Source of the DNA: a virus | Reading direction: 5' to 3' (one strand) | Length of the DNA stretch: 64,000 nt | Virus record (IMG/VR): IMGVR_UViG_3300027747_000967 | Coordinates: 32,001 to 96,000 of that record | Shown here: positions 31,690 through 53,233 of the stretch, one piece after another | Layout of the letters: the number at the start of each line of letters is the position of its first letter | Numbering within the stretch: the first letter of the stretch is position 1 | Made by a program: the position numbers and the translations under genes | The notes under the pieces: model-generated | Seen by the model: only the letters and a program-made list of their open reading frames with translations | Told to the model about the DNA's origin: nothing | The model's database searches: none

Positions 31690-32523
31690 TTATACCAGTA
31701 ATTCAATCATCTTTGACATAGGATATTGAGGTTCATATCCTAATTTTTTGATTTTTTTGATGTCTAGTATCATATCTTTTGCTTGAACAATACTATGAAA
31801 TCTAGGTGTTGGTATACTATTAAAAGATGAAGAAGAATTTGTCATTTCCTTAACCTTCAACATTACGTCCATCAAACGAATACCTTCACCGTTCGCTAGG
31901 TTGTAGATTTCATTCTTTTTTCCAGAATTTAGAATAAGGTTGATACCAGACACGACATCATCTACATAAATGTAATCTCTATACACTTCACCACCCTCAT
32001 ATAGATTGATGGGATTACCTTGTTTAACTTCATTAATCATATATTGTAAAGCATTCTTCTTAGCAGACGCCTTGCCATCTGATTTACCTACCACATTACC
32101 TAAACGAATAATACGATAAGGTATTTCAAATGTTTTACAATAAGAAATGAGTAATTGTTCAGCTGCTCGTTTGGTAATTGAATAGAACCCTCTAGGGTCA
32201 CAACCATAGGTTTCTTTAGCAGGTAGTTTAACGTCACCATAGACAAACCAAGAACTAATAAAGTTAAATGTAATATCTTTACCTTTACAAGACTCTAGTA
32301 CTTTAATTAAAGTCGTAAGATTGGTTTCAATGTCAAGATAAGGGTTAGTGTGAACATTATAATTATCAATAGTAGATATAAAGTATAAAACATCCGTAAC
32401 TCCTTCCTTTGCTTTCACTTCATAGTCATTTCTTTCATTAACCCAAAGATATCCATCTGTCAATTCTACATAACGAGAACCTATAAAACCTTTACCTCCA
32501 AAAACATTGATTAATCGTTCCAT
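31690..32523 (-). CDS. NAD-dependent epimerase/dehydratase
   Basis: GGKGFIG, YSITK, RDYIYVDD. Confidence 0.85.
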   Translation of the reverse strand: MERLINVFGGKGFIGSRYVELTDGYLWVNERNDYEVKAKEGVTDVLYFISTIDNYNVHTNPYLDIETNLTTLIKVLESCKGKDITFNFISSWFVYGDVKLPAKETYGCDPRGFYSITKRAAEQLLISYCKTFEIPYRIIRLGNVVGKSDGKASAKKNALQYMINEVKQGNPINLYEGGEVYRDYIYVDDVVSGINLILNSGKKNEIYNLANGEGIRLMDVMLKVKEMTNSSSSFNSIPTPRFHSIVQAKDMILDIKKIKKLGYEPQYPMSKMIELLV

Positions 32524-46410: not shown

Positions 46411-47095
46411 TATTTAATTTTCCATAATATAATTCTACATCATTGTTTCTATATACTAAAGCTCTTGTAAGATTAGGATTCCTTTTACCATCTTTTCTGA
46501 ACGGTTTCTGTTTTTTTAACCATTCGTTAAATTCTACATCACTCATATTAATATACTTTTCTTTTGTTTTCAACCTAGATTCACTAATTTTTTTGGTTTT
46601 TTCAGTTGAACAAGGAGATGATTTTCTATTTTTAGGATAATTTATTATTTTCATTCCTGTTTTTTTAACTCGCATTTTTTCAATACCATTTTTTATTGAC
46701 TCCTCAGAAGCTCCAAAATATTTTTTTCCAAACATATCATTTCTTATTTTTCCTTTTTTAGCTTCATACATTGCTAGTTTAGCTGAAGCAAATTGTTTAG
46801 ATGTATAACTAACTTTTCTGTGGTTATCGCCACCAGTACCTAATACCATCATATGATATGCTTGTGCCATTTTTCTTGTTTTGTGATTATTGGTTCCATA
46901 TCTTTTTTTAAAAAGTTTCCATAAAAGGTGGTGTGCAATATAGTGTTCCCGTAAAGTTAACTTAACAATATTTTTATTTTTTCCGTAAATGGACTCTGGA
47001 AAAATATGATGGTTTTCATAATTTTTTCTTTCAAATATTACTGTTCTAGTTTTTGCTTTTCTACAAAGTTTTATATAATGTTTTATATAATTCAT
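46400..47095 (-). mobile_element. free-standing HNH homing endonuclease (Mob-like) inside the split gp43 locus
   Basis: YENHHIFPES...NIVKLTLREHYIAHHLL. Confidence 0.85.
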
Positions 47096-47104
47096 TTTTT
47101 TGTC

Positions 47105-47156
47105 CTTAGATTTGAATACCTTTAGTATTTATAAATAAAGACTATTCAACTCTAAG
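47105..47156 (-). promoter_or_regulatory. late promoter inside an RBS-sequestering hairpin
   Basis: arms CTTAGAGTTGAATA and TATTCAAATCTAAG around TATAAATA (47126-47133). Confidence 0.8.
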
Positions 47157-48647
47157 ATTTCTTCTTTCTAATTCAGTTAAAATTAACTCCAATTGTTGTT
47201 TTTCCTTTAACATTATTTTTTTTGCATCTTGCCTTTCTTTAAACATTTTTTCAATTAAACTTGGCATAAATCCTTTAATATCGGTTCTGAAGAATTGTCC
47301 ATTTGGCGTTAATGTTGCATTAACCAATCTAGAAGTCTCTACCTGTTTCATTAATAAACCGTCAAGTGATATACCATCAGATAAAATCTTACGCATTTCA
47401 TCAGTATAGTTTTCAGGTTCAATTAAAGTTTCGGGACTTATATTGTATTGCATCATTAAACTTGGATATAGTGATGTTAAATCAAACGAAACAATCCAAT
47501 CATGTTTGCCTACTTGAACTTCTTTGACATATGCACCCTCAAACATACCGTCTTTTTCTTTATGTTCTTTTGGTGGAACAATGATTTTCTTATCCAACAA
47601 ATACGAATATGTGAGAGCGTCCCACATTCTTGTTTGTGCAAAGACATCTTCAAAGTTTGATTTTGTGTCGTATGCTAGTGTTACTGCTAATTCTAATAAT
47701 TTTAATTTTTCTTCAAGTTTTAGAATCAACATTACGTCTTTAATGTTATACTCAATAAATTTTTGGAAGTTTAGACGATATAACGCATGAAGATTGTCAT
47801 ACTCATCATAAGATATTTTACCTTCACCCAACTCAACTTGAGCGATAGCATCCAAACGATAAGATTCTTGTGACTTACCGCCAGGAGCATACCATTTATA
47901 CAACTCAATATAATCTAATGATGCAAGACCCATCAAACTATATTCAATTAATGTTTTACCATTTACAAGTGTTTTTTTGTCACGAATATAATTCCATGGT
48001 GATAGTTTTTTTGCTTCATCTTCACCGAGAATCTTACGAAAACGATTTACAAGATAAGGTATATCGAAGAACTTTGTATTCCATCCTGTGATAATGTCTG
48101 GACACTTTTTAGACCACATTGTAAGAAACTTTTTACATAAAGTATATTCATCTTTACATTGTAAATAAATTTCATCACCTTGTGCATAGTATTCACCACA
48201 TCCAAACACTACGGTTTCGCCATTAAGATACTTTACACAAATAGCAGTAATAGGTTCATTGGCTTCGTATGGGTCAGGAAATCCATTCTCTGAACCTACC
48301 TCAATATCTATTACGCCTATGAGAACTCTATCAAAATCATAATCAACTAATTTAGGATGCTGGTCAGCAATAAAGGCATACTCATAACGAGTTTGGCCAT
48401 ACATTACAGGTGCACCAGGAAGTCCATCAAATTGTTTAATGTAATCTCTTGCTTCACGAATGTCTTGAAATTGTTTTCTATCTAATGGAAGGCCAGTGAG
48501 TGACTTATAAATTCCTTGTGGATTTTTTCTAGAAGGCAAAAAAAGAGAAGGCGCATAAGCAATCTTCTCTTTTACTCTCTTACCATTTTCTATTCCTCGG
48601 TAAAGAATATTATTACCGAGGACTTCTACGCTTGTATAAAAATTCAA
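47142..48647 (-). CDS. gp43: DNA polymerase gp43, N-terminal subunit (gp43A)
   Basis: DIEV Exo I, GWN..FFD Exo II, YNIKD Exo III, SFDLTSLYPS motif A; TTG start. Confidence 0.95.
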   Translation of the reverse strand: MNFYTSVEVLGNNILYRGIENGKRVKEKIAYAPSLFLPSRKNPQGIYKSLTGLPLDRKQFQDIREARDYIKQFDGLPGAPVMYGQTRYEYAFIADQHPKLVDYDFDRVLIGVIDIEVGSENGFPDPYEANEPITAICVKYLNGETVVFGCGEYYAQGDEIYLQCKDEYTLCKKFLTMWSKKCPDIITGWNTKFFDIPYLVNRFRKILGEDEAKKLSPWNYIRDKKTLVNGKTLIEYSLMGLASLDYIELYKWYAPGGKSQESYRLDAIAQVELGEGKISYDEYDNLHALYRLNFQKFIEYNIKDVMLILKLEEKLKLLELAVTLAYDTKSNFEDVFAQTRMWDALTYSYLLDKKIIVPPKEHKEKDGMFEGAYVKEVQVGKHDWIVSFDLTSLYPSLMMQYNISPETLIEPENYTDEMRKILSDGISLDGLLMKQVETSRLVNATLTPNGQFFRTDIKGFMPSLIEKMFKERQDAKKIMLKEKQQLELILTELERRNLRVE

Positions 48648-48649
48648 AA

Positions 48650-48958
48650 TTAACCTGTGATTAATTGTTTTGATGGAAGAACGATACCTGAACCAAAGAT
48701 TTGATTATAGTTATTTACAAAATCTTCTGCTGGTTCATAAGAGTATACTACATTCTTCTTAGCGATGGCAATAGTGGCACCTTTCTTTTGTGGTGCATGA
48801 AGTGGAAATGGAGCAAAGCCAATGTTGGGTTGTCCGTCTTTACCACGAACTACAGCAATACCTACAGGGTTTGATAACACATATTCAGTTTCAGATTGTG
48901 ATTCAATCTCACCTAAAACTTCTTCACCGTTAATTAATTTTAAGACTTGAATATTCAT
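48650..48958 (-). CDS. conserved hypothetical protein, possibly Sm-like
   Basis: LKLINGEEVLG...YNQIFGSGIV. Confidence 0.7.
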   Translation of the reverse strand: MNIQVLKLINGEEVLGEIESQSETEYVLSNPVGIAVVRGKDGQPNIGFAPFPLHAPQKKGATIAIAKKNVVYSYEPAEDFVNNYNQIFGSGIVLPSKQLITG

Positions 48959-48975
48959 AATTTTCCTTTGTTGAA

Positions 48976-49050
48976 TGGAGCGGATAGTCAGATTTGAACT
49001 GACGACATTTTCGTTGGCAACGAAACATTCTACCCCTGAATTATACCCGC
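48976..49050 (-). tRNA. tRNA-Gly(GCC)
   Basis: cloverleaf, anticodon loop TTGCCAA, GTTCAAATC T-arm, encoded CCA. Confidence 0.9.
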
Positions 49051-49127
49051 ATGATACTATTATATAATACTTATGAACGATTGTAAAGCACTATATAATA
49101 ATATACCACATTAAAAAAGAGAACAAA

Positions 49128-49409
49128 ATGAAAAAAACTATACTCAGTTTGTTATTTGTACCTATATTATCTTTTTCTCAAATCTCAGCACAAAAACCAG
49201 TCGCTTGTTTTCCAATGGATTATTTACAAAAAGAATTAAAAAAAGGCGAAGAAACACCTTTATTAATTTCAAAAAATAAAATGACCAACGAATCTACAAT
49301 CATTGTATTCAAAAATGAAAAAAATGGAACATGGACTATTATTGAATTCAAAGATGATTTTGGATGTGTTTTAGGTTTTGGTGTTGATAAAACAGGAAAA
49401 TCTATTTAA
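49128..49409 (+). CDS. small exported protein
   Basis: signal peptide MKKTILSLLFVPILSFS; two Cys. Confidence 0.7.
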   Translation: MKKTILSLLFVPILSFSQISAQKPVACFPMDYLQKELKKGEETPLLISKNKMTNESTIIVFKNEKNGTWTIIEFKDDFGCVLGFGVDKTGKSI

Positions 49410-49410
49410 T

Positions 49411-49484
49411 TGGTAGCGGGACCTGGATTTGCACCAAGAACTAAGGCTTATGAGGCCATTGTGATACTCTTTCACTATCCCGCA
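49411..49484 (-). tRNA. tRNA-Met(CAT), possibly initiator-like
   Basis: loop CTCATAA, unpaired 1:72, T-arm GTGCAAATC, CCA end. Confidence 0.75.
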
Positions 49485-49494
49485 ATAGAAATTG

Positions 49495-49563
49495 TGGAGC
49501 GGTGTCTTTGAGTTGCACAAAGATAATTAAGAGGGAATCTCAATTTGTTCTCCAACCCACCGC
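49495..49563 (-). tRNA. non-canonical tRNA-Gly(TCC)
   Basis: 69 nt; GCGGTG/CACCGC acceptor, T73 and CCA; mini D-arm; loop ATTCCCT; T-arm CTTTG-TGCAACT-CAAAG. Confidence 0.7.
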
Positions 49564-49569
49564 ATATTC

Positions 49570-49713
49570 TTAATTTAATGTTATCTGCTCGATTTAGGGG
49601 TCTGGTGCTTCCATCCCATAGCGAATAAGCAGTTATCTCAGGACCTATTCCTCGCCAGTTAGACCCGAATAGTTAATACGTCTATTAACGATACCTTGAT
49701 AACACTAAATTAA
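49570..49713 (-). ncRNA. candidate structured ncRNA A
   Basis: 16-bp closing stem plus internal hairpins. Confidence 0.55.
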
Positions 49714-49801
49714 AAATCCCGCTTACCGTTTGCGGGGTCATCATACCAGATTACTCGGTTCTATGACGGTCACAACTTGCTGTTTCTCAACAGTAGATAC
49801 T

Positions 49802-49830
49802 AGTATAACATTATATATATCAAAAGTCAA
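49802..49830 (-). promoter_or_regulatory. sigma70-like promoter for the downstream RNA genes
   Basis: TTGACT-17 nt-TATACT with extended -10 TG. Confidence 0.75.
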
Positions 49831-49849
49831 GCGACTTTTTGGTATACTT

Positions 49850-49927
49850 TGGAGCAACGGGTCAGATTTGAACTGACGGCTTTACGGCTTTGCAGGCCGT
49901 TGCATTTGACCACTCTGCCACCGTTGC
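49850..49927 (-). tRNA. tRNA-Cys(GCA)
   Basis: ACGGC-CTGCAAA-GCCGT anticodon arm; CCA end. Confidence 0.9.
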
Positions 49928-49935
49928 ATAATGAA

Positions 49936-50042
49936 TTTGTAGTAGGCATGAACACAATCATATTAGTTTGCGCTTCGATATTTAACGCCACTTGCGTGGT
50001 TCCGCAACACCTTTTACATATCATCACGATAGTTACTACAAA
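49936..50042 (-). ncRNA. candidate structured ncRNA B
   Basis: TTTGTAGTA/TACTACAAA closing stem; internal TTGCG/CGCAA hairpin. Confidence 0.45.
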
Positions 50043-50044
50043 AC

Positions 50045-50120
50045 TGGTGCCCCATGTCCGACTCGAACAGACCACCTACTGATTACAAATCAGTTACTCT
50101 ACCAGATGAGCTAATGGGGC
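50045..50120 (-). tRNA. tRNA-Thr(TGT)
   Basis: cloverleaf, loop TTTGTAA, GTTCGAGTC T-arm, CCA end. Confidence 0.9.
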
Positions 50121-50132
50121 AATTGTATCCTA

Positions 50133-50297
50133 TTATATACAATAACTCAAATTAATGCACATAATAGGATACAATTTTTTAGATTTCTCTTTACGTCTTA
50201 AAGCTTTGTTACTTTTTTTATGACTACCCGCTTTACGAAACAATGCCAATTTGACAAGATAGTTTCGTTCTTTGGGAGTAGAATCTTTCTTTTTCAT
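50133..50297 (-). CDS. small basic protein, ArfA-like ribosome-rescue factor candidate (not in ORF track)
   Basis: TAAGGAG RBS; MKKKDSTPKERNYLVKLALFRKAGSHKKSNKALRRKEKSKKLYPIMCINLSYCI; 16-bp hairpin over its 3' end. Confidence 0.65.
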   Translation of the reverse strand: MKKKDSTPKERNYLVKLALFRKAGSHKKSNKALRRKEKSKKLYPIMCINLSYCI

Positions 50298-50313
50298 CTT
50301 ACTCTCCTTAAAA

Positions 50314-50550
50314 TTAGGACGGGCTACTTCCTGTCATAGAAGCCCCCGATTGGAATTCATCGTTAGCCATATTCCCGATATGTAATGGCAAACATTGTCA
50401 ATTAATAAGGGTAATGTGACAACCCACTTGCGTAAGCAGAGCAAGATAACCCCCGATTTAAAGCTCGGCAACTTATGACAACTGATTGGCCGGCCCCACT
50501 CATGGGATACCATTTAATCTAGGCTTTCTTCGTGCTATATCCTAGAACCA
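50314..50550 (-). ncRNA. candidate structured ncRNA C (about 235 nt)
   Basis: GC-richer non-coding stretch with multiple nested stems. Confidence 0.55.
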
Positions 50551-50555
50551 AAACT

Positions 50556-50632
50556 TGGCGGTCTGTATCGGACTTGAACCGATGGTCTCCTCCGTGACAG
50601 GGAGGCGATTTAACCAACTAATCTAACAAACC
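50556..50632 (-). tRNA. tRNA-Asp(GTC)
   Basis: CCTCC-CTGTCAC-GGAGG anticodon arm; CCA end. Confidence 0.9.
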
Positions 50633-50727
50633 ATATTGAAGCACACTATTGAGATTCCACTTTTCAAGTCAGGGTCCGGATGACCAAGCGCCGCTTCTCG
50701 CAGGTAGGGAATAATGTGCTTCAATAT
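50633..50727 (-). ncRNA. candidate structured ncRNA D between tRNA-Glu and tRNA-Asp
   Basis: 18-bp closing stem ATATTGAAGCACA.TATT around a 59-nt GC-rich core. Confidence 0.5.
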
Positions 50728-50801
50728 GGCGCTCGGTACCAGATTCGAACTGGTGTGACCGCCGTGAAAGGGCGATATCCTAACCGCTAGATGAACCGAG
50801 C
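50727..50801 (-). tRNA. tRNA-Glu(TTC)
   Basis: loop CTTTCAC, GTTCGAATC T-arm, CCA end. Confidence 0.9.
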
Positions 50802-50860
50802 ATATTTACAACATTTACAACATGAATTTTTAAAGAACAGTTATTACTTAATATACAACC

Positions 50861-50888
50861 ATTATACATGAACCACCGAATAAGTCAA
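50861..50888 (-). promoter_or_regulatory. sigma70-like promoter of the tRNA operon
   Basis: TTGACT-16 nt-TATAAT, followed by boxA-like TGTTCTTTAAAA. Confidence 0.75.
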
Positions 50889-50944
50889 TCATTATTTTAC
50901 TACTGTTGTTTTTTTACTACAGATGTGTTGTATTTCTACAACAC

Positions 50945-51457
50945 TTATTGATATTGTTTCCAACCAATAGGTTCTTCCTCTATTGGGTCATCTGGATTAC
51001 AAATGCCTTCAAATACTTCCCATAATTTTTCTTGAACTACAAATTTACGAAATAAACCACCTTCCATTCCGTATGCTTCTATTTCCCAAGGTTGACTCCA
51101 ATAATCCAAATCTTCTGCTACATGAGCACCTTTCCAACGAGTTAGGTTATCATTGGTTTCACTATAAGCGTATTGTTTAATGTGAACCATCTCATGGCCT
51201 AAAGATTTAAGAATATTTCTTCCACCAATCTTTGGATTCATTTCAATCAAAAAGTTTCTGGCTTTACCTAAATCTGTTCTTTCTTCAACGGAAGCATATC
51301 CATAAACATCATCAATCTTTTTATTAAAGATAACTTTGATACAGATATTTTCCAACATTTTTGCGGTAAGTAATTCTTGCGCATAGAATAAAATAGCCCT
51401 TTTGACATAAGGACGGAATCGCTCTTTATCGGGACAACCAACTATACTTAACTTCAT
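50945..51457 (-). CDS. zincin-like metallopeptidase
   Basis: LGHEMVHIKQY...YWSQPWEIEAY. Confidence 0.8.
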   Translation of the reverse strand: MKLSIVGCPDKERFRPYVKRAILFYAQELLTAKMLENICIKVIFNKKIDDVYGYASVEERTDLGKARNFLIEMNPKIGGRNILKSLGHEMVHIKQYAYSETNDNLTRWKGAHVAEDLDYWSQPWEIEAYGMEGGLFRKFVVQEKLWEVFEGICNPDDPIEEEPIGWKQYQ

Positions 51458-51534
51458 TTAGGTCTCTCCTTAGAAAATTGACCCAATAATTGGCATGATA
51501 CCGTTCTTACTCACACATGACTATTTATTGTATT

Positions 51535-51563
51535 ATTATACTCTGGTTTAAGAGTTTTGTCAA
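51535..51563 (-). promoter_or_regulatory. sigma70-like promoter
   Basis: TTGACA-17 nt-TATAAT. Confidence 0.8.
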
Positions 51564-51597
51564 GAAGATTTTGTAAACTGTTGTTTTTTTACAACAC

Positions 51598-51951
51598 TTA
51601 TGCTTGACGCCTGAAAAATCTTTGTTTGATATTTTTTGGTTTGAAATGTTCTTCAATTGATTTGACCACTTTTGTTTCATCAAAATCTTTGCAACTAAAG
51701 ATATCCATATAAAGGTCACCATTAATATCTAAAAAGTGACCCATAATATTAGAAGTTTCAATAAGTTGTGATACTGTCCATCCTGCTTTATCTGTTCCAT
51801 CAGCAAAATGAACAAGTTGTGGTTCACCATAAGGAACCATTTCAATTAAACGAACTAAATCTTTAGTGAAGTGTGTAATGTATTCTGGATCCGTTGCTCT
51901 TTGAATTTCGCAACCCTTTATATCTAACATTAAATGGTAACCCCAATACAT
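51598..51951 (-). CDS. speD: S-adenosylmethionine decarboxylase proenzyme
   Basis: WGYHLMLD, QLIETSNI (self-cleavage Ser), YMDIFSCKDF. Confidence 0.85.
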   Translation of the reverse strand: MYWGYHLMLDIKGCEIQRATDPEYITHFTKDLVRLIEMVPYGEPQLVHFADGTDKAGWTVSQLIETSNIMGHFLDINGDLYMDIFSCKDFDETKVVKSIEEHFKPKNIKQRFFRRQA

Positions 51952-51960
51952 AACTACTCC

Positions 51961-52164
51961 TTAATAGATATTAAGATAATATTTAGTTAGTTTATCCTTA
52001 AGCATATCAGGAATTGTTAGATAAGGCCATTCAAGGTAAAATGGACATCCTTTATTACCCCATTGTTTTTTAACAAGAAAACTTTTTGTTATTTCAATAT
52101 CTTCCTTGGAACCTTCAAATTGTCTTTTTTGAGGTGTGAACATCATTTCAAGTTTATTACTCAT
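51961..52164 (-). CDS. hypothetical protein
   Basis: W...GCPFYLEWPYL; likely start MSNKLE, downstream of the promoter at 52196-52224. Confidence 0.6.
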   Translation of the reverse strand: MSNKLEMMFTPQKRQFEGSKEDIEITKSFLVKKQWGNKGCPFYLEWPYLTIPDMLKDKLTKYYLNIY

Positions 52165-52262
52165 AATATTATCACTTTCATCATTATAAAGTACCATTAT
52201 AACATAAAAAAAGAGGACTGTCAAGCCCTCTTTTCGGTTATTTACCAGATACAGGTCACCAA

Positions 52263-52724
52263 CTATTCATCTTTGGCTTTTACGGTAATCTTTTTTACCA
52301 TATCCTGTGCTTTAATCATGTTTTCCAACCAAACTCTTAACATACCATTCATTAATTCAGCATCTTTAATTTCTACCGAATCAGCCAATGTAAATGTACG
52401 TTCAAAGTTACGGCCAGCAATACCTTTGAAAATGTATGAACCGTCTGTTTCATTATCTTTTGATACTCCTTTGATAACCAATTTGTCGCCTTGTAAAGTA
52501 ACTTCAATATCAGACTTAGCAAAACCAGCAACTGCCATTTCAATAACATACTTGTTTTCTTTTACTTGTTTGATATTGTATGGAGGATAACCAGGTGTTG
52601 CTTTGGCCATTTCGGTGTGCATAGATTGAAGTTTATCAATCACTTCATCAAAACCGATGGTGAAAGGGTCAAAAGATTTGTGGATTTTATCCCATTGTGG
52701 GAATAGAGTGAGGGTGCTTGTCAT
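52263..52724 (-). CDS. small heat-shock protein (Hsp20/IbpA-like)
   Basis: IGFD, YPPYNI, MAVAGF, GIA.RNF.RTF.L, NGML. Confidence 0.95.
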   Translation of the reverse strand: MTSTLTLFPQWDKIHKSFDPFTIGFDEVIDKLQSMHTEMAKATPGYPPYNIKQVKENKYVIEMAVAGFAKSDIEVTLQGDKLVIKGVSKDNETDGSYIFKGIAGRNFERTFTLADSVEIKDAELMNGMLRVWLENMIKAQDMVKKITVKAKDE

Positions 52725-52752
52725 AGATTTTCTCCTTGTTAAGCGAGTTAAT

Positions 52753-52785
52753 AAAAAAGTGTAGACCCCGAAGGCATCTACACTT
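52753..52785 (-). terminator. intrinsic terminator-like hairpin after regA
   Basis: AAGTGTAGAT-GCCTTCGGG-GTCTACACTT followed by a T tract; TATAAATA at 52787-52794. Confidence 0.65.
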
Positions 52786-52813
52786 ATATTTATACACTAA
52801 ATTACAATATTTG

Positions 52814-53233
52814 TCAATAACTACCTGGTTTTTTACCAATTGAATACTTGGTAACAAGTTCCCATTCGTCTTTTTCTTTGTGAGAAAGAATCTTAATTTG
52901 TGATAGGAAAATTGGAGGTGGTGTCTGTGCTTTGGCTTTATTGACGATTTCAACCAAACCCCAATCAGACAAAAGTACCGCAATAGCATTCCTACGAGAT
53001 AAATCGTTTTCTGAAATGTCTGTTGGTTTACCATCTAATGCAAACAGTTCTTTAAAGTGAACGATTGCATAATGGCCTCTTTTGTGTAATATATGGCAAG
53101 ACTGGTATAAAATTCTGTCTTTTTTAGAAGCAACACCGATACGGGTTAATGTTTCACGAACCTTCAAAAAATCATCTTTTTCTTTTAATTTTATCTCAAT
53201 ACCATGTCCTAAAAATATATCCACTTCACTCAT
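52814..53233 (-). CDS. regA: translational repressor RegA
   Basis: DDFLKVRETLTRIGVAS...LYQSCHILHK.G.Y.IVHFKELF.LDG. Confidence 0.95.
   Translation of the reverse strand: MSEVDIFLGHGIEIKLKEKDDFLKVRETLTRIGVASKKDRILYQSCHILHKRGHYAIVHFKELFALDGKPTDISENDLSRRNAIAVLLSDWGLVEIVNKAKAQTPPPIFLSQIKILSHKEKDEWELVTKYSIGKKPGSY

Follow-up and report, generated by a model that had tools for sequence, protein, structure and literature searches.

A small basic-protein gene of phage tRNA arrays whose reading frame ends within or beyond a hairpin or a tRNA: a candidate for stop-less expression

The systems closest to the gene considered here are the alternative ribosome-rescue factors of bacteria. According to excerpts of PMC8012679 and PMC10107115, arfA carries a stem-loop that serves as an RNase III cleavage site or as a transcription terminator, in brfA a terminator precedes the stop, and both genes are repressed by trans-translation. 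Excerpts of PMC8012679 further state that BrfA arose independently of ArfA, so the stop-less design has arisen more than once, and that structures of ArfA and BrfA exist in the PDB (6SZS for BrfA). ArfT of Francisella tularensis, as described in excerpts of PMC6299226, is a protein of 40 aa with the motif KKGGSTNKK, and is reported in part of PMC6514570 to be a member of a wider family. Here we describe a phage mini-gene lying on the minus strand of a 64,000-nt stretch of virus DNA (‘the window’; IMG/VR record IMGVR_UViG_3300027747_000967, positions 32,001 to 96,000), within an array of transfer RNA (tRNA) genes. An original prediction, made from the letters of the window, had proposed that the gene encodes an ArfA-like protein and that its stop codon is enclosed in a hairpin.

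The mini-gene family and its 3′ ends

The end of the open reading frame (ORF) was compared across 80 related loci from viral contigs, annotated with ARAGORN and RNAfold; these represent 62 distinct core DNA sequences, and part of the counts given for the 80 loci comes from near-identical copies. All but one are informative (79/80), the remaining ORF running off its contig. In 43 loci the first in-frame stop falls within the tRNA that comes next, in 27 within a hairpin, and in nine past a hairpin that the ORF contains entirely, as in E. coli arfA; in 0/79 informative loci did a stop precede the RNA structure that begins after codon 41. The arfA-style 3′ design anticipated by the original prediction is thus seen in 79/79 informative loci, in each of which the conserved core runs stop-free into a long hairpin or a tRNA. 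A Shine-Dalgarno-like motif is present 4–17 nt ahead of the start in 79/80 loci. tRNAs were detected in 79/80 loci, at a median of seven per 3 kb, every one of them on the strand of the ORF (622/622), and in 24 loci the upstream tRNA ends 17–26 nt before the ATG.

Two phage clades can be distinguished by what follows the core. Members of the window’s clade (...KSKK) have a hairpin, starting between −6 and +1 nt relative to the end of codon 41, with an outlier that starts at +13 and has 13 bp. Hairpin stems measured 20–26 bp in 35/36 cases and loops approximately 10 to approximately 90 nt; in different subclades the same site is taken by stems of unrelated sequence, of which there are at least three. 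The sister clade (RNCFVRLALFRKAG[SV]HRKSNKALR) lacks the hairpin and has a tRNA instead, mostly tRNA-Lys(UUU), which starts approximately 2 nt past codon 41. The stop in 23/43 tRNA-overlapping loci is the tRNA’s own U8-A9-R10, and in the others it falls at tRNA positions 6 to 108; in this tRNA-fused clade each of the three possible frames between ORF and tRNA is represented. Stops can be as distant as position 78 or 108, so that in some ORFs translation would cross the whole tRNA. Selection does not act on where the stop falls.

The mini-gene is a genuine gene, and its product belongs to a large, unnamed family of very basic proteins of approximately 41 residues. A word-indexed protein search recovered 104 homologs of 38–94 aa, and a profile built from 34 phage cores matched 536 cluster representatives at E<=1e-3, and 67 at E<=1e-10, out of 1.84 billion. 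Every named family member that was looked up is a ‘hypothetical protein’, and the mini-gene’s own product is present in a public protein collection without a name. Scans of this product against Pfam, NCBIfam and PHROGs returned no family from any of the three at E<=10. The core, 41 residues long, has the consensus RN..V.LALFRKAG.H.KSNKA.RR, with 14 columns invariant among the 34 phage cores (R11, N12, A18, R21, K22, A23, G24, H26, K28, S29, N30, K31, A32 and R34). Pairwise differences per site were 0.28, 0.21 and 0.52 at codon positions 1, 2 and 3 respectively, and both codon families are in use at the invariant Ser, Arg and Leu columns; the core is under protein-level selection. Beyond residue 41, tails differ among relatives in both sequence and length (0 to approximately 50 aa). 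The hydrophobic tail noted in the original prediction is indeed encoded by the hairpin in the window (LYPIMCINLSYCI), and as a shared feature it fails, since it is not conserved among relatives.

An AlphaFold2 model based on a 56-row alignment (mean predicted local distance difference test score, pLDDT, 79.5) places a helix at residues 14–20, a loop containing RKAGSHKKS at 21–29 and a basic helix at 30–40. A Foldseek search of this 41-residue model against the PDB gave no matches at E<=10, a model of this size allowing no further conclusion. The central motif of the family profile is also matched by six KRKAGRPRKSNKT repeats in P0191, a 720-aa protein of eukaryote-like composition; the repeat looks to be of AT-hook type, and the match is probably a chance or convergent one.

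The hairpin and its place in the tRNA array

Both the 54-aa basic ORF with its ribosome-binding site and the perfect 16-bp hairpin containing the stop were confirmed in the window (Table 1): arm AATTGTATCCTATTAT, at 50121-50136, has a perfect 16-base complement at 50161-50176, and the TAA lies in the 3′ arm. The minus strand carries all of the window’s tRNAs and almost all of its long ORFs. Folded as minus-strand RNA, the hairpin forms 21+4 bp at −29 kcal/mol (z-score −7.4), with 0/200 shuffles as stable, and a repeat search lengthens its arms to 25 nt at 88% complementarity. Two other identities were considered and rejected. The arm is not a repeated element, being unique in the window at 0 mismatches, with matches at three mismatches no more numerous than expected by chance; nor does the hairpin appear to be a plus-strand terminator, for although a T-run follows on that strand, the terminator scan made no call.

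RNase III substrates are typically stems of about two helical turns. Helices of at least 20 bp were present at the 3′ end (the last 130 nt or the surroundings of the stop) of only 5/72 control ORFs, these being window ORFs of at least 100 aa; a 13-bp helix does not discriminate, being found in 41/72 of the same controls. Among 12 close relatives, compensatory double changes were seen in 4/20 stem pairs, some of them linking the coding 5′ arm to the partly non-coding 3′ arm.

The hairpin is only partly explicable as an element for tRNA processing, and belongs to the ORF rather than to a particular tRNA. The next tRNA varies (His, Cys, Met, Arg, Gly or Thr) or is 108–1221 nt distant, and in one locus (L004) an identical protein and hairpin are followed by tRNA-His where the window has tRNA-Thr. 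One condition that the original prediction set for its own refutation, a hairpin missing from homologs and serving tRNA-Thr processing alone, is not borne out: the hairpin is kept whichever tRNA follows. Locus L004 also has a gap of 291 nt where the window has the stretch between tRNA-Asp and the mini-gene. In the window that stretch (50298-50555, minus strand, from tRNA-Asp to the ribosome-binding site of the mini-gene) is 258 nt long, contains no long ORF and folds into several stems at −67 kcal/mol. The window’s spacers between tRNAs at 50633-50726, 49928-50044 and 49485-49849 have long terminal stems that adjoin the tRNAs, as where 50631-50650 pairs with 50710-50729 (17–20 bp); these spacers might either be processed by RNase III or persist as stable RNAs.

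The 5′ end of tRNA-Thr, and hence the RNase P site (50120), directly adjoins the last base of the hairpin (50121). Upstream of tRNA-Glu lies a sigma-70-like promoter (Table 1), likely the start of a transcript containing tRNA-Glu, tRNA-Asp, the mini-gene and tRNA-Thr, although promoter-like sites in the region are as numerous as shuffled sequence would give and this one is a consensus match only. The terminator scan found no terminator-like site between this promoter and tRNA-Thr, from which it would follow that the mini-gene is probably part of a tRNA precursor transcript. The array comprises six tRNAs, all on the minus strand, which ARAGORN finds to be the sole tRNAs of the 119,998-base virus record; an Rfam scan of 47000-53000 likewise returned only six tRNAs at threshold, with no family for the hairpin, for the 235-nt stretch upstream or anywhere in 50298-50555.

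Table 1. Coordinates of the mini-gene locus in the window, and of permuted transfer-messenger RNA (tmRNA) genes in related phage records
Feature	Sequence	Coordinates	Strand	Details
Mini-gene ORF	window	50133-50297	minus	54 codons; translates to MKKKDSTPKERNYLVKLALFRKAGSHKKSNKALRRKEKSKKLYPIMCINLSYCI
Shine-Dalgarno motif AAGGAG	window	50304-50309	minus	6 nt ahead of the ATG (from sequence)
Conserved 41-codon core MKKKDSTPKERNYLVKLALFRKAGSHKKSNKALRRKEKSKK	window	50175-50297	minus	13 Lys, 4 Arg, 3 acidic residues
Variable tail codons LYPIMCINLSYCI and TAA	window	50133-50174	minus	13 last codons and stop, all hairpin-encoded
TAA stop	window	50133-50135	minus	within the 3′ arm of the hairpin
Hairpin, 21+4 bp; candidate RNase III site	window	50121-50176	minus	from the first post-core codon to the base preceding tRNA-Thr
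tRNA-Thr(UGU)	window	50045-50120	minus	ARAGORN; Rfam tRNA, 61.5 bits
Sigma-70-like promoter, TTGACT-16 nt-TATAAT	window	50861-50888	minus	upstream of tRNA-Glu; 11/12 consensus matches
Permuted tmRNA gene	L136	1492-1901		ARAGORN
Permuted tmRNA gene	L138	1525-2026		ARAGORN
Permuted tmRNA gene	L145	855-1224		ARAGORN
Permuted tmRNA gene	L146	807-1210		ARAGORN
Permuted tmRNA gene	L147	944-1363		ARAGORN
Permuted tmRNA gene	L148	984-1360		ARAGORN

Two neighbouring ORFs of the window may be recorded here. A plus-strand ORF of 93 aa (49128-49409), between tRNA-Gly and tRNA-Met and opposite in direction to the tRNAs, has a signal-peptide-like N-terminus (MKKTILSLLFVPILSF) and no Pfam match. On the minus strand, an ORF of 501 aa (47142-48647) contains a family B DNA polymerase exonuclease domain together with positions 23–147 of the 453 in the polymerase profile, which suggests that the polymerase is split.

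A proposed stop-less message and its alternatives

We tentatively propose that processing by RNase III or RNase P turns the mini-gene transcript into a stop-less mini-mRNA encoding a new factor of ribosome-rescue type, gated by trans-translation, a reading to which we give somewhat less than an even chance. Processing of the RNA would remove the stop, with RNase III cleaving the hairpin and RNase P acting at the 5′ end of the tRNA, and translation would carry ribosomes to the very end of the mini-mRNA. While trans-translation works, tmRNA would tag the product for degradation; as in the arfA and brfA circuit, the untagged 41-mer would accumulate only once tmRNA had become saturated or disabled. 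The product would most likely bind the ribosome, where its basic half could occupy the empty mRNA channel, and during infection the 41-mer would help to free stalled ribosomes, as ArfA, BrfA and ArfT do. A possible role of the factor in counter-defence, an idea that draws in part on an excerpt of PMC10264068, would be that phage tRNA arrays answer tRNA-cutting defences and that such cutting loads tmRNA.

Some carriers of the mini-gene also appear to encode a tmRNA of their own. The search covered 25 gene-carrying phage records, comprising 14 of the tRNA-fused clade (many of them fragments), ten of the window’s clade and one intermediate (L044). Rfam tmRNA models gave no match at gathering score in any of the 25, and ARAGORN detected permuted tmRNAs, of the two-piece type, in 6/14 records of the tRNA-fused clade (Table 1), with the tags ANDEAFLMAA, ANDSKFALAA, ANDERFALAA, ANDSSFAIAA, ANDTLYALAA and ANDESYALAA. 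One further tmRNA called by ARAGORN, in a seventh record of this clade, is doubtful and has a 27-residue tag. Where tRNA-fused-clade records are at least 90% complete, a tmRNA was present in 3/4. A broader idea, which we consider unlikely though worth stating, is that large phages carry a portable two-tier rescue kit, made up of the new factor of approximately 41 residues and, in one clade, a phage tmRNA. In this view the factor belongs to a new class with no kinship to ArfA, BrfA or ArfT; the RNase P and RNase III cleavages through which the phage tRNAs mature would also strip its message of the stop, so that the factor would appear only once trans-translation is overwhelmed. Paired with the tRNA array, such a kit would keep translation going while tRNAs or mRNAs are being cut by host defences, and the single-copy homologs of Polaromonas and related bacteria would count as a fourth alternative rescue factor in bacteria.

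Homologs of 53–62 aa are encoded at 46 loci in bacterial genomes (Polaromonas, Hylemonella, Curvibacter, Ramlibacter and related Burkholderiales), at none of which a tRNA adjoins the gene. Their neighbours are of housekeeping type, either an EamA transporter with a beta-lactamase-like gene or phosphoglucomutase with LemA, and give no functional hint. A family match was found in 61/201 Comamonadaceae-type genomes (a tally that includes an unpublished genome, G233), and in all but one of these it is single-copy; ArfA was found in 0/201, and phyletic complementarity with ArfA is hence uninformative. One carrier genome, G002, also encodes RF1, RF2 and a short ArfB-like protein of RF-1 type. A complex predicted for the Polaromonas homolog with its own RF2 (chain taken from after the frameshift site, and run without controls) scored 0.01, which weighs neither way on whether the two bind. 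Among 50,697 deposited phage records the gene occurs in only three, Acidovorax phage ACP17, Variovorax phage V45v66 and Synechococcus phage BUCT-ZZ01, and in the last of these the stop is at position 19 of tRNA-Lys. The ACP17 homolog (L001 2441-2650) has the conserved N-terminal part KKPERVPRERNPLVK without an in-frame upstream ATG, GTG or TTG; its frame, which is not annotated in the ACP17 record, opens right behind the end of the preceding gene, and either an atypical start or coupling to that gene may account for this.

Several findings weigh against a stop-less rescue message. The Comamonadaceae-type bacterial homologs have ordinary stops and a conserved C-terminal extension of ALKKQL type. 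Ordinary stops are also found in phages ACP17 and V45v66, with no tRNA within approximately 2.5 kb of the gene in either, and a tail of the ACP17 type is seen again in a metagenomic relative (P0178). Such stops argue that the stop-less design is a trait of the phage tRNA-array forms and not intrinsic to the family as a whole. No tmRNA was found in the 11 other records searched (the ten of the window’s clade and L044), one of which is 100% complete, nor in the window’s own record (71% complete) by RF00023, RF01851 or ARAGORN; and where phage tmRNA does co-occur with the gene it is supportive context and not proof, the carriers being related to one another. The searches detect no homology to ArfA, to BrfA or to the ArfT/KGG family, and no RNA sequencing runs containing the locus are listed. 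Long stems close the other spacers of this array as well, so that the hairpin may have a general function in processing or stability. Finally, an RNase P cut alone would in the window keep the stop on the mRNA, 12 nt from its end, so that a stop-less message requires a cut within the stem.

The ordinary stops of the bacterial and two phage homologs, the long stems that close all of the array’s spacers beside tRNAs and the lack of homology to any rescue factor also speak for a simpler explanation, which we regard as quite possible if rather doubtful: that the product is a small basic protein of an ordinary kind, perhaps one that associates with RNA, tRNA or ribosomes, whose gene is tightly packed into a tRNA array, with the stop position neutral. 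The hairpins and tRNAs would then serve the array’s processing and stability, and junk tails would be harmless, or the first ribosomes would finish before processing takes place. It fits with this that the tail is just three residues long where it ends at the conserved U8-A9-R10 (23/43 tRNA-overlapping loci). Tight packing sits less easily with the finding that not one of the 79 informative loci, across 62 distinct sequences and several unrelated hairpins, has a stop at the end of the core, and it implies that some 41-residue proteins would bear 20–50 junk residues or a translated whole tRNA. The hairpin, moreover, stays with the ORF where there is no tRNA for 100–1200 nt, and stem length is held at 20–26 bp although the loops vary approximately ninefold. 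Another possibility, that the ORF is a leader peptide acting in cis, appears very improbable; translation of the Lys-rich ORF into the hairpin or tRNA would then sense charged tRNA-Lys in the manner of an attenuator and so control how the downstream tRNA folds and matures. Lys accounts for 13/41 core codons in the window, tRNA-Lys(UUU) comes next in 39/80 loci and the ORF physically overlaps the 5′ part of the tRNA, all as such a leader would have it; but the 14 invariant positions, Lys and non-Lys alike, are kept despite synonymous codon change, the single-copy homologs in 61/201 Comamonadaceae-type genomes (G233 again included) are far from tRNAs, and many different tRNAs follow in the window’s clade. 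Codon-level conservation, bacterial homologs remote from tRNAs and varied next tRNAs together argue for a protein that acts in trans.

ArfT is said to have been placed in a KGG-motif family by Burroughs and Aravind in 2019, and its wider family is one that we take to be the Pfam KGG repeat family. That the mini-gene encodes a true, very diverged member of the ArfA or ArfT/KGG families is the least probable of the explanations weighed here. The tripeptide LFR is common to the family and E. coli ArfA, RKAGSHK of the family aligns with RKGGQHS of the KGG protein YciG, and ArfT, as excerpts of PMC6299226 and PMC6514570 describe it, has a comparable length (40 aa) and motif (KKGGSTNKK) and relatives in a wider family. 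The ArfA-like identity given in the original prediction was nevertheless not borne out, hidden Markov model (PF03889) and hhalign searches finding nothing beyond LFR. PF03889 matched neither the mini-gene protein nor 56 family members at E<=1, and had no match in the six frames of the phage record, the E. coli control being matched. By hhalign, the family profile aligned with E. coli ArfA over five columns (ALFRK/PLFRQ) at 0.14% probability and with E. coli YciG over seven columns at 0.3%, and against all PDB chain sequences, where ArfA and BrfA would both be met, the profile gave no matches at E<=10. PF10685 did not match at the gene in any record tested (G000, G242, G243, G002 and G003; E<=1), its sole match being elsewhere in G002 at E 0.97, and it was absent from the Pfam matches of the 56 members. 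A further lead from a protein atlas, DUF7230 (PF23876; rank 8, score 0.88, on 16% of one cluster’s members), was also rejected, with no match at E<=1 in five gene-carrying phage records or among the 56 members.

Comparison with known rescue systems

If the stop-less rescue reading is correct, the back-up logic of arfA and brfA has been reinvented in phages within a new protein family, in one form with the stop-less end created by RNase P as it excises a tRNA. It would give a function to an unnamed family of more than 500 sequence clusters with bacterial members besides, and would join phage tRNA arrays and phage tmRNAs in one ribosome-maintenance module. Should tight packing be the true explanation, the locus would instead be a clear case of how far the packing of genes and tRNAs can go in phage tRNA arrays. 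The question is directly testable in a cultured relative, phage BUCT-ZZ01 on S. elongatus PCC 7942, with its stop inside tRNA-Lys. Searches of open-access PMC and bioRxiv full texts found no description of a rescue-factor-like phage gene in tRNA arrays, or of phage mRNAs made stop-less by tRNA excision.

Published rescue factors are comparable to the mini-gene product in size, charge and regulation. ArfA (YhdL, PF03889; beta- and gammaproteobacteria) is likewise a small basic protein with a stem-loop in or before the 3′ coding end and a dispensable hairpin-encoded tail, and its active product comes from a stop-less mRNA (excerpts of PMC8012679). ArfA works by recruiting RF2 to non-stop ribosomes, and arfA and ssrA form a synthetic-lethal pair. 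The window has, as arfA does, a stem-loop in the 3′ coding region, which here begins at codon 42 and holds the stop; this architecture recurs in 36 hairpin-type relatives, nine of them with the hairpin wholly inside the ORF as in arfA, and in 43 a tRNA takes its place. ArfA differs in length, at 52–55 aa when mature against the 41-aa core of the mini-gene family, and in setting, the mini-gene being carried by phages within tRNA arrays; in the sister clade, moreover, the candidate means of removing the stop is a tRNA, through RNase P, and not a hairpin. Of the motifs in the basic C-terminal tail of ArfA, which occupies the mRNA channel, the family has neither KGKGS nor a conserved KH, and is marked by its own invariant RKAG.H.KSNKA.R, with an invariant His in a basic context. 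BrfA (YqkK, Bacillus subtilis) differs in having an intrinsic terminator before the stop, whereas mini-gene hairpins are mostly without a U-run.

The basic KKGGSTNKK of ArfT, compared by the motif reported in excerpts of PMC6299226, resembles the family’s invariant RKAGSH(K/R)KSNK. Like the mini-gene’s bacterial homologs, ArfT has an ordinary stop and no control of arfA type. A parallel for the tRNA-fused form is offered by tRNA punctuation in animal mitochondria, in which excision of flanking tRNAs defines the ends of mRNAs and leaves some messages without a complete stop. There, polyadenylation completes the stop, whereas the phage message would be expected to be truly stop-less and so to engage tmRNA.

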